Source of the DNA: Escherichia coli
GTDB taxonomy: Bacteria > Pseudomonadota > Gammaproteobacteria > Enterobacterales > Enterobacteriaceae
Reading direction: 5' to 3' (one strand)
Length of the DNA: 19,069 bases
Assembly (NCBI RefSeq): GCF_003334815.1
Contig: NZ_QOWO01000053.1
Shown here: positions 12,001 to 15,000 of the stretch, in pieces
Layout of the letters: each line of letters opens with the position of its first letter
Position numbering within the stretch: the first letter of the stretch is position 1
Position numbers: made by a program

Positions 12001-15000
12001 GAATTGATAATTTTTCGTACAGACTTGTTTTCCGTGGGTATGTAATAACTGAAAAACTCAAATCATAAGATTCCAGTCTCTTTATAAGTTTATTTATTCT
12101 TGCTGGAGTAAAGAGATGTGAATGCATGACAATGATTTCATCATTATTAATTGCTTTTGATATCAGAGAAAGCAATACATCCCAGTGTTTCCTCATTGAC
12201 TTCGGGCAACGTGTGTCAGCATAGGGGCTAAGATGTATAGTTGATTTCTTGCTTCCCTTTTTCTTCTTCACAAAGAATGTGAAGTCGTATTTAGATGCAG
12301 ACCTTACAATAAGAAGTACACATCTGAAAAGTAGTGGGAAAATGCAAATCACAACCACCACACAGAAATATAACATATAAGGCAATGATAAGTTGTCAGT
12401 GTATGGATAACGTAAGTATTGCCATGGGGTAGTGATGTACAGACAAAGCGTACACCAAAGCAACCATAGATATAATGGTACGTTATTATTTTTCATATTA
12501 GTTGACTTTTAATACTGTTTTCTATCACCACATTTTTATGTGTCTCATTTGGCACTTCGTACTGTTGGAAATATTGTTGGCGGCGGATGCGTGTCTGTTC
12601 ACTGCTTTCTATTAACACCGCCATGGCGATTGCAAAGTATATGCAAATCAGGAAAATCCAGAACGCGTTTGGTATCTTCCAAAAAAGTGTGGACAGTTTG
12701 TTATGTGGTGAAACTAAAATCGGAGAAAGGATTCCACAGACAATCACAATCGCGATGGTTAATTTAACTAAAAAGAACACGGCCCCCACCTGTTTTGACG
12801 AGGTCTTTTGTTTTTGTTGTGTTTACGACAGCCAGTCCTGTAGATGCTGATGGCGGGAGCTGCTGCCCTTGTGCCAGCGGCAGTGGCTGCCGGGAGCACG
12901 CTCCAGTCGGAACAGAAATCGGTTGTCGCGTAGTACCACCACGAGACAGTTATCCGGCGTGCAGAAACGTCGGGCAAGCTCATCGGGGTCTGTCGGTGTT
13001 TTCGTTGAAAACAGCCTGCGTTTGCAGTGTGCGTCGACGACCAGTATTTGCAGTCGTCCGGGATGTTGCTGTGGCATCAAAGACTCCTTCCGGAACGGGA
13101 AAAGAAGCAGCTGTACCGTCATAACTGCACGTACCGGTTGCGAAAAAACGGCACAAGCGAGTAGTGACAGAAAGAATGTCGGAAACGGCAGGAAGGGCGG
13201 TACAGGCTGCGAAGACGGGAAACGGGTTGTGTTGGGAATTAACGCACGTGAGGTGTGATGAGAACGACGCGCTTTTCGCCAGCTCCGTCTCCGGTGAATC
13301 CATTCACGACAAGGGACTGTTCCGGTCTGAGAGAAATGCTTTGTTCAACAGTCTGTTTTCGTTTCTGGTCTGTGGTCGAGAGTCGCAGAGTGATATTTCC
13401 GGGCGCACCGTGAATATCCGGTGATACCTGCATTCTGACACCGGGAGAGACATCTGCAGTGAAGGTATCCGGACCTACGGACGTTACCAGTGATTCAACA
13501 CAGGGCGTATTCTGTATCATCCCGTGGAGCGTTTCAGGTGTCAGCGTCAGGCTGCCATTAAAAAATGCACTGCGTGAAATACTCCCCTGAGCACCGGCAA
13601 ACAGGTCCGGATGGCGCTCATTAAGAAGGCTTCCGTATTTTTCCGCCAGGCAGATTGGGTTGCTGGCCGTTGTGTCTGTTCGCACGGTATCGACCGTGAA
13701 TGTCACCTGCGGGTGATGTTCCCTGTGGCCTGTGCAGCCGGACAGCAGTGCGGCGGCTATCGTCATCCAGAGTAGTGGTTGTTTTTTCATGCTGTTAATT
13801 TCCTCTCAGGGTAAAAAGAAAGACTCGCACCGTCATGTCGATGGGGGCCGCTTGCGAAAAAATGGCACAAGCGAGTAGTGACAGAAAGAATGTCGGAAAC
13901 GGCAGGAAGGGCGGTACAGGCTGCGAAGACTGGAAACGGGGTATGCCGGGGATTACACATCCTCAGTGTAATGTGATAGTTGTCTGCTCCTGTGTTGCAC
14001 CCCAGACATCTTCTGGCAGGCTGGGCAGCCCGATAAATAGGGTGTGAAAGAGGGTTTCTCTGCGTTCGATCCCGAATTGATGTTCGTATCCTCTCACCAC
14101 CTGAAATCCTTCGTCGGAGAATATTAACTCTGCCGTTTCCAGAAGCTGCATAGTTTTGCGGTGTAGTGGAGTGATCAGCTGCAACGTAACTGGTGCCCTC
14201 ATATCGCCTGTCGGTAGAAAACACTCTTCGGTGCGACTTAGTTGTAGCAGATGACGTTTCCCGGAACAGGCCCGTTCAATGGATTCATTGAACACCCTCT
14301 CAGGCCATGGGCAGACATATGTGCGCCAGCCTGCTTTCTGTAATTTACCCAGTGCAGCCCGAAAACGAAACAACGGACATTCCCCGACAGTGGCAGAGCT
14401 GAGAAAGAGCGTATTCAGCGTTCCGATGATGGGAATATTGCGATCTTTTTCGGTCAATGCTTTTAACGCCATGATTTCGCCAGGGAGACTACGGAACTCA
14501 GGATGTCTGCTGGCACCAGAAAGCCATTCAAGCAGGTAATGCCGTAATCCGGTTTCACTGGTTATATTGTGGTTTTCCTGTGCCGTTTTCAGGGCATTCA
14601 GTGCACACCAGAGCAACTGGCGCACGGGATGTTCTGTCGTGGTCATGCGAATGTCCTACTGTGAGATGAAAAGAAGACCGGTATCCGCTCTCTCCGCCAC
14701 ACGTGATGGCACGGGCCGGCCTTTGATAAAACGAATCAATACTCTGGGGTGAAGCCTTTTATTTCTTTCGCCATTAAGAAATACACGATTCCATCAAAAG
14801 ACAGGGGGAGTCCATGGTGGGGATGGCTTCGTGCAGGCTTCACTCCAGAATATTCTCTGAATTGAAAAAAGCCCGGCCCGAAGGCCGGGAAATACTGGCT
14901 ATGGGATGTTTACAAGGCGCTCCATAAAGCCGTGATGTTCGGCATTTGATACCAGTTCCAGGAGCAGGGATATCCTCGACTCAGGCTGGAGAGTATTTTC

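Follow-up and report, generated by a model that had tools for sequence, protein, structure and literature searches.

The IncI1 plasmids rank among the major vehicles of resistance genes, those for ESBL included, and to our knowledge it is still not understood how TraB and TraC switch on their pilus and transfer genes. At the junction between traC and the thin-pilus operon, two nearly identical untranslated sequences stand at almost the same distance before two consecutive genes, which raises the question of how the sequence came to be there twice and what it might do in the transcript. The DNA analysed here (the window, 19,069 nt of an Escherichia coli contig, NZ_QOWO01000053.1) comes from a ColIb-P9-type IncI1 conjugative plasmid, and its positions 12400-15000 are 100% identical to plasmid NZ_CP057464.1 (107.7 kb) and 99% identical to many others. 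The minus strand carries every gene of the region, in the order traA, traB, traC, copy A of the repeat, trcD, copy B and pilI (Table 1), and the tra, pil and trb genes occupy a single strand across about 55 kb. The traBC genes are known positive regulators of the IncI1 transfer genes (PMC5801416, PMC4288162), and TraB is presumed to be an antiterminator on the long transcript from traB to the pil and tra genes.

The initial annotation had described an 89-bp near-identical direct repeat 55-60 bp upstream of a lipoprotein gene and of pilI. The repeat is real: sequence reading, repeat search and pairwise alignment all find 87 identical positions out of 89, with the true end at 13940, one base past the 13939 first given, and the spacing was about right, the core lying 60 nt from the pilI start codon (ATG 13077) and 61 nt from that of trcD (ATG 13790). 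The two core mismatches are C/A in CC[C/A]GTC and G/A in GCC[G/A]TTTTTT, and the extended repeat covers 108 nt at 93% identity, with an offset of 714. A 30-nt piece of the repeat has two exact occurrences in the window and none in 200 dinucleotide shuffles. Both copies lie in sense orientation to the genes (minus strand), and each begins right at the stop codon of the gene before it, that of traC abutting copy A. By segment, copies A and B agree at 10 of 18 positions in the 5' flank, 87 of 89 in the core and 28 of 61 in the 3' flank, and between the 61-nt trcD 5'UTR and the pilI 5'UTR the identity is only 46%. The repeat forms the middle of an untranslated leader of about 170 nt which precedes pilI in IncI1-type plasmids; ColIb-P9-type plasmids have a second leader copy between traC and trcD, and trcD thus lies between two direct repeats. 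No SD-preceded ORF was found on the sense strand of the repeat region. An in-frame ATG upstream of the pilI start, at 13122, is without an SD.

Table 1. Features of the traA-pilI region, in the coordinates of the window.
Feature	Position	Strand	Remarks
traA	15875-16162	-	gene of the region
traB	14899..15432	-	RfaH/NusG-family elongation factor; TIGR01955 RfaH, E 4.5e-11, under the curated cut-off
Strong terminator-like hairpin	14889-14872	-	between traB and traC; terminator scan
traC	13963..14646	-	DUF2913 family; positive regulator gene
Copy A core, 89 nt	13852..13940	-	between traC and trcD; extended homology 13848-13955
trcD 5'UTR of its own, 61 nt	13791..13851	-	3' flank of copy A
trcD	13239..13790	-	183-aa lipoprotein gene, bracketed by the repeats
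Copy B core, 89 nt	13138..13226	-	between trcD and pilI; extended homology 13134-13241
GCAGCCTGTACCG	13198..13210	-	5' arm of long-range stem, inside core; partner 13107-13118
pilI 5'UTR of its own, 60 nt	13078..13137	-	3' flank of copy B
CCGGTACGTG	13128-13137	-	pilI 5'UTR; match to shufflon sfx right arm
CGGTACAGCTGC	13107-13118	-	pilI 5'UTR; 3' stem arm
CTTCTTTT	within pilI 5'UTR	-	predicted anti-SD
GGAAGGAG	13084-13091	-	pilI 5'UTR; SD of pilI
pilI	12823..13077	-	84 aa; first gene of the thin-pilus operon

A dispersed repeat family of the REP, ERIC or MITE kind was considered for the element and rejected, the whole 107.7-kb plasmid NZ_CP057464.1 containing only these two copies and no third. 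In the records examined from 1,431 plasmids, the element is confined to the traC-pilI locus, except that IncK2/Z plasmids have 47 nt of it behind trcD. The leader was located at 1,933 places in these 1,431 records, the junction of traC with the flank of copy A in 1,012 records, and trcD at an identity of at least 95% in 484 records. The leader-bearing records fall into three arrangement classes of roughly one third each: the double class (traC-A-trcD-B-pilI), which includes ColIb-P9 (NC_002122, both copies), the single class (traC, one 171-nt leader and pilI), found in about 500 plasmids without trcD, and other arrangements. R64-type plasmids have traC, a 13-nt gap, traD, a remnant of the trcD 3'-end (about 60-90 nt), the leader and pilI. 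The ‘full’ array of more divergent IncI plasmids consists of traC, a TraD orthologue (43% identity, E 5e-53), a small ORF Y, a trcD homologue, the leader and pilI. A leader of about 160-170 nt is kept before pilI in every IncI1-type arrangement sampled, and the roughly 420 R64-type and full-type plasmids have the 13-nt gap, and no leader, after traC. That plasmids carry traD, trcD or neither at this junction was already recognised (PMC8004404, PMC4288162), and the same three arrangements are found here at the same locus, the window having the ColIb-P9 (trcD) form. The junction literature (PMC8004404, PMC4288162, PMC5801416) treats the variation as presence or absence of genes. No description of the repeat, the hybrid leader treated below or the R64 trcD remnant was found in that literature, to which the primary R64, R621a and ColIb-P9 sequence papers do not belong, and the term ‘direct repeat’ is absent from PMC8004404.

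The initial annotation had proposed comparing R64, ColIb-P9 and IncB/K/Z plasmids to learn whether one copy or two are ancestral, and the comparison, with IncK2/Z plasmids included, gives an answer. Because both the divergent full arrays and the R64 trcD remnant have the leader behind trcD and before pilI, the position of copy B is the ancestral one and copy A the derived one, and the R64-type arrangement arose from the full array by deletion. Copy A itself is mosaic, with flanks 46-56% identical to those of copy B around an 89-nt middle that is 98% identical. Two causes had been offered for this identity, recent duplication and strong selection, and orthologous leaders separate them. Compared with copy B, pilI-proximal leaders of other plasmids are 88-94% identical in the core, a divergence of 6-12% between lineages, and 97-100% identical in the adjacent 60-nt 3' flank, which is the pilI 5'UTR and is conserved to this degree in all lineages sampled. 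The core, being less conserved than the non-duplicated 5'UTR, does not look like the object of unusual selection; copies A and B also have lineage-specific bases in common which are missing from other lineages, and their borders are sharp. On these grounds, the 98% identity of the two copies indicates a recent duplication or gene conversion. Thus, the strongest constraint in the leader falls on the 60 nt adjoining pilI and not on the repeat.

The neighbouring genes tell of further exchange at this place. R64-type and ColIb-type plasmids are 99.5% identical in traB/traC and differ by 9% in pilI, the traC of full-type plasmids is only 77% identical, and the traC-pilI interval is accordingly a recombination seam. 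The single-copy leaders are hybrids of copy A at the 5' side and copy B at the 3' side in five of five plasmids sampled: the 5' flank and the first SNP are those of copy A, the second SNP and the 3' flank those of copy B. A homologous exchange between the two copies would remove trcD and yield just such a hybrid leader, as seen in the roughly 500 single-class plasmids, and in a possible reverse route an excised circle would re-integrate and give identical sequences. The five single-copy leaders have the same SNP pattern, and a pilI variant, 249A, is common to all single-copy plasmids compared; in the sequences at hand this uniformity is equally compatible with one old event. Comparison of flanking SNPs finds traB/traC haplotypes mixed across the arrangement types.

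The repeat is thus a recombination footprint that places the same leader before both trcD and pilI, and the earlier suggestion of a duplicated leader, or the scar of a rearrangement involving the lipoprotein gene, agrees with the comparative arrangements. An accessory gene framed by direct repeats that stem from a duplicated intergenic leader is a familiar kind of arrangement. Like the repeats that enable recA-dependent deletion, the two copies are about 90-108 bp long, direct and near-identical with sharply diverging flanks, and natural variants exist in which one hybrid copy is left and the intervening gene is gone. Unlike generic deletion repeats, the repeated unit here also serves the downstream cistron as its 5' leader, and gain or loss of trcD consequently leaves a complete leader before the next gene. 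The known trcD, traD or neither polymorphism can in this way be explained simply, by recombination.

The gene between the repeats encodes a protein with a signal peptide and a lipobox (LLSGC). It had initially been called traD-like, a label that does not hold: its product gives no BLASTP alignment with the R64-type TraD, the likeness is merely positional, and the ColIb-P9 gene at this place is named trcD (PMC8004404). No NCBIfam or Pfam family and no PDB sequence match was found for the TrcD product, and its AlphaFold model (pLDDT 66) has no PDB match by Foldseek at E <=0.001. A 45%-identical trcD homologue is located directly upstream of the pil genes in IncI2 plasmids, and because of this neighbourhood the product is probably a pilus-associated accessory protein. 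In IncK2/Z plasmids, a 93%-identical trcD allele is found elsewhere, between rci and traF, preceded by a 54-nt piece of the flank that lies 3' of copy A and followed by the initial 47 nt of the repeat.

Whether the duplicated leader also has a function is a question of what its RNA contains. The sense strand of the core is composed of 38% C, 36% U, 17% G and 9% A. Among 78-nt windows on both strands of the 19-kb sequence, the copies are the top two for pyrimidine content (0.74-0.76) and rank first and fourth for C minus G and first and third for YC dimers; the best such windows in the copies contain 33-34 C and 10-12 G. Several coding windows of the 19-kb sequence have C/G ratios similar to that of the core. 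The non-homologous leaders that follow traC in an IncK2/Z plasmid and in a YadA-carrying plasmid are likewise above the 99th percentile for pyrimidine content, the IncK2/Z leader being at just the 92nd percentile for C minus G. Rho loads on untranslated, unstructured, C-rich, G-poor RNA, and a rut site is expected to extend over at least some 70-80 nt, to be rich in C and in YC dimers and poor in G, and to be free of structure and of ribosomes. The copies have this length and composition, and the core is intergenic and, as an 89-nt RNA, has a minimum free energy of only -6.5 kcal/mol, its shuffles being more stable (z +0.7 to +0.9).

We propose that the core mRNA may be a Rho loading (rut-like) polarity site in the long unidirectional traB-traC-pil-tra transcript, and that readthrough into trcD and pilI would be reserved to RNA polymerase modified by the RfaH-like TraB; the duplication would then have brought the inserted trcD under the same control as pilI. 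Such a Rho-polarity tract, making trcD and the pil operon dependent on TraB, is favoured because of the composition of the core, the RfaH/NusG-like nature of TraB, the unidirectional array of about 55 kb, and the precedent of the F and R6K conjugation operons, in which Rho-based silencing is reported to be countered by RfaH paralogues (bioRxiv 10.64898/2026.02.23.707533). R64 TraB has also been cited as a homologue of the RfaH-like IncX3 activator PrfaH (PMC11880322). The rut assignment itself is a putative one, made from composition alone. For the overall explanation, a recombination-duplicated leader carrying a Rho-polarity tract dependent on TraB, we estimate the chances as about even. If it holds, the untranslated C-rich tract just after traC would be a specific site where Rho polarity and TraB antitermination could meet.

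The likeness to known RfaH/Rho systems (F tra, R6K vir with ActX, IncX3 with PrfaH) lies in the plasmid-encoded RfaH/NusG paralogue, here TraB, that heads the transfer array, and in the untranslated, C-rich, unstructured leader of the traB-headed array, which is of the kind that Rho loads on. The difference from RfaH/ops systems is that the leaders have no ops-like 12-mer on the sense strand: a search for the ops/JUMPStart element (GGCGGTAGnnTG) gave no sense-strand match in the leaders at three or fewer mismatches. In IncX3, furthermore, the recruitment site of PrfaH is in the regulator's own 5'UTR and not in downstream intergenic regions (PMC11880322). The earlier idea that the repeat is the target of the upstream regulators is therefore not upheld for direct recognition, and may stand only in an indirect form, as a Rho-polarity site overcome by the NusG-like TraB. 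The only resemblance to ops, GGCGGTAC, is on the antisense strand.

A wider version of the Rho-polarity proposal would make the leader a portable control module, such that genes inserted between traC and pilI inherit the Rho tract and TraB control through homologous recombination, and the I-complex plasmids would keep the position behind traC specifically for cargo. We think it doubtful that the leader is such a module. This position elsewhere holds NfeD/flotillin or a YadA-like adhesin. The notion that all post-traC cargo is bracketed by leader repeats was discarded, as bracketing was not seen for the NfeD/flotillin or YadA modules.

Folding of the minus-strand transcript of the repeat, which the initial annotation had recommended, did not disclose a conserved element: the core is unstructured, and the one long stem does not covary. 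A long-range stem (GCAGCCUGUACCG / CGGUACAGCUGC) forms solely in the copy B transcript (146-nt fold, z = -3.3), pairing a segment of the core with the pilI 5'UTR. This stem carries uncompensated, disruptive substitutions in three lineages, and none of 38 predicted pairs shows a compensatory change; a conserved RNA structure in the leader was rejected on these grounds, and Rfam gave no match to the leader at E up to 1. Targeting of the leader by the C4-like antisense RNA found upstream of traA was rejected too, as by crude duplex energies 67-89% of other windows pair better. The SD of trcD has a predicted pairing partner in a U-rich stretch of the trcD 5'UTR. No intrinsic terminator (GC-rich hairpin with a U-run) was found in the repeats.

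Several other readings of the repeat have to be weighed against the Rho-polarity tract. The initial annotation had considered a duplicated promoter; each copy would then start the transcription of trcD or of the pil operon in dependence on TraB/TraC or TraA. The copies do end equally far (60-61 nt) from the start codons, traBC are positive regulators of the transfer genes (PMC5801416, PMC4288162), and activator-dependent promoters may depart from the sigma-70 consensus. A consensus scan of 12700-16800 for -35 and -10 elements at 16-18 nt spacing, however, left both copies without a sigma-70-like site, whichever strand was read, the sole promoter-like site of that interval lying inside trcD (13544-13516). 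The best -10-like hexamers (TATGAC and CATGAC) are outside the 89-bp core and miss the final T, with TACGAC in their place in R64-type plasmids; the conservation of the core is below that of the 5'UTR; no diverged copy or common motif occurs before any other tra/trb operon of the full plasmid; and TraB is homologous to an elongation factor, not an initiation factor. We therefore regard a promoter as unlikely; no mapping of transcript starts or ends for the traC-pilI region was found in the literature. An improbable role, to our mind, is also that of a ribosome standby site, a CU-rich single strand on which the 30S subunit (through protein S1) would wait and so boost translation of pilI and trcD. 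It fits the unstructured, pyrimidine-rich core, the 8-bp anti-SD/SD helix that RNAalifold predicts before pilI, the retention of 6 of these 8 pairs in the otherwise dissimilar trcD 5'UTR, and the 10-bp helix over the SD into which the trcD 5'UTR folds by itself. Yet a U-run will pair with any purine-rich SD, so that the retained pairs are weak evidence, the minimum-energy fold of the isolated copy B 5'UTR is without the anti-SD/SD helix, and covariation is lacking.

Being less conserved than the adjacent 60-nt 5'UTR, the core could instead be a weakly constrained spacer, with duplication and identity as mere by-products of the recombination that moved trcD; without the Rho/TraB mechanism, the repeat is just a recombination footprint. 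A functionless core agrees with its 6-12% divergence between lineages, which is about that of the neighbouring genes, with the failure to find a motif, structure or family match in it, and with the roughly 420 plasmids that manage with no leader between traC and the next gene. It does not account well for the extreme pyrimidine bias, which is kept in all orthologues and recurs in the non-homologous I-complex leaders, or for the persistence of a leader of 160-170 nt before pilI in every IncI1-type arrangement sampled, and we consider it unlikely, the Rho-polarity tract remaining the preferred reading of the core. The last alternative, a site for a DNA-binding protein or recombinase such as the shufflon enzyme Rci that would mediate gain and loss of a trcD cassette, seems very improbable. 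In the R64 shufflon, wild-type Rci is not known to act on sfx sites in direct orientation, which counts against this alternative, and plain homologous recombination explains the single-copy leaders. The Rci reading was suggested by CCGGTACGTG, which agrees over all of its 10 nt with the right arm of the sfx site GTGCCAATCCGGTACGTGG (1055-1073), has the same orientation as the pilV sfx and is invariant in 11 of 11 pilI-proximal leaders, and by the related CGGTAC motifs, of which the leader has three. The match is outside the 89-bp repeat and missing from copy A, however, and, being present only beside copy B, it lacks a partner site on the other side of trcD to recombine with; an IncK2/Z plasmid has no counterpart beyond chance. 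A true sfx site (7-bp spacer and 12-bp right arm, the 19-mer GTGCCAATCCGGTNNNTGG) was rejected for this sequence: the right arm agrees at 10 of 12 positions and does so beside copy B alone, the spacer is unconserved, and the ungapped alignment matches at 13 of 19 sfx positions. The sfx-like match in the pilI leader is probably a coincidence or a relic.

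Sequence comparison of the arrangements between traC and pilI points clearly to this interval as a recombination seam joining a regulatory module to a pilus module. L002, L019 and L021 were compared. Between the R64-type and ColIb-type plasmids, traB and traC are 99.5% identical, while pilI is only 91% identical. In the 'full'-type plasmids traC is only 77% identical, yet the leader core retains 88-94% identity.

The slot immediately 3' of traC carries variable cargo among other I-complex plasmids (the IncK2/Z and IncB/O sequences L014, L015 and L016, and L013). One type of cargo, located ahead of pilI, consists of an OB-fold (NfeD-like) protein and a flotillin; a second type is an adhesin resembling YadA that contains tandem repeats of 90 nt. 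Both types are preceded by a pyrimidine-rich leader of 250-266 nt, and these leaders have no sequence relationship apart from a common TTTTTTCGCAA. Across IncI1, IncK2/Z and IncI2 plasmids, the family of the lipoprotein gene trcD repeatedly adjoins type IV pilus genes, and in IncK2/Z it is sited between rci and traF, with a truncated paralogue ahead of it. Neither an annotation nor a fold match was found for this family, the C-terminus of which, EKRVVLITPHVR, is nearly invariant.

The 60 nt that separate the repeat from the start codon of pilI are the most constrained non-coding stretch of the locus, maintaining their identity across lineages in which the adjoining genes diverge by 7-14%. They include a U-rich tract able to pair with the pilI Shine-Dalgarno sequence (SD). 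Of the two in-frame start codons of pilI, only the downstream ATG has an SD; the coordinates listed for PilI of pESBL cover 300 nt, which fits the longer form. The counterpart of the upstream ATG in the flank of copy A, the leader repeat between traC and trcD, is ATGACGGT, which starts a 13-codon ORF terminating at the trcD SD. Immediately outside the 89-nt repeat, the pilI 5'UTR also contains a short sequence that matches the right arm of sfx, the crossover site of the shufflon. This short sequence is invariant in all 11 pilI-proximal leaders and missing from copy A. With a chance expectation of ~0.04 per window, this match may be a coincidence, a relic or a half-site for the shufflon recombinase Rci.

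Features of the traA-pilI region and related sites
Feature	Coordinates	Strand	Remarks
trcD, window	13239-13790	-	trcD family
trcD, L018	2568-3203		trcD family
trcD, L008	2467-3012		trcD family
sfx right-arm match CCGGTACGTG	13128-13137	-	exact 10-nt match, pilI 5'UTR
Shufflon crossover site GTGCCAATCCGGTACGTGG	1055-1073	-	pilV 3' region; carries right arm matched by CCGGTACGTG
pilI 5'UTR, repeat to start codon	13078-13137	-	97-100% identity across lineages
pilI ATG, downstream	13077	-	84 aa
pilI ATG, upstream	13122	-	would give 99 aa
Terminator-like hairpin, CCCGGCCTTCGGGCCGGG + T6	14872-14889	-	strong; intrinsic type
C4 antisense RNA	16214-16301	-	strong match to Rfam RF01695, 77.5 bits (gathering score 45)
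a1/b1-target-like match	16388-16440	-	weaker; just upstream of C4 match

The C4 antisense RNA and a1/b1-target-like matches both lie upstream of traA, and traA and traB may be controlled by an antisense switch of the P1/P7 type. Our guess is that this C4-like region is the equivalent of 'Hft' in pESBL, a region in which insertions reportedly derepress transfer. The terminator-like hairpin is located directly 3' of the NusG-like traB and ahead of traC, within a 46-nt imperfect inverted repeat (14712-14757 / 14835-14880, 74% complementary), and the two elements could form a terminator/antiterminator arrangement with TraB mediating readthrough.
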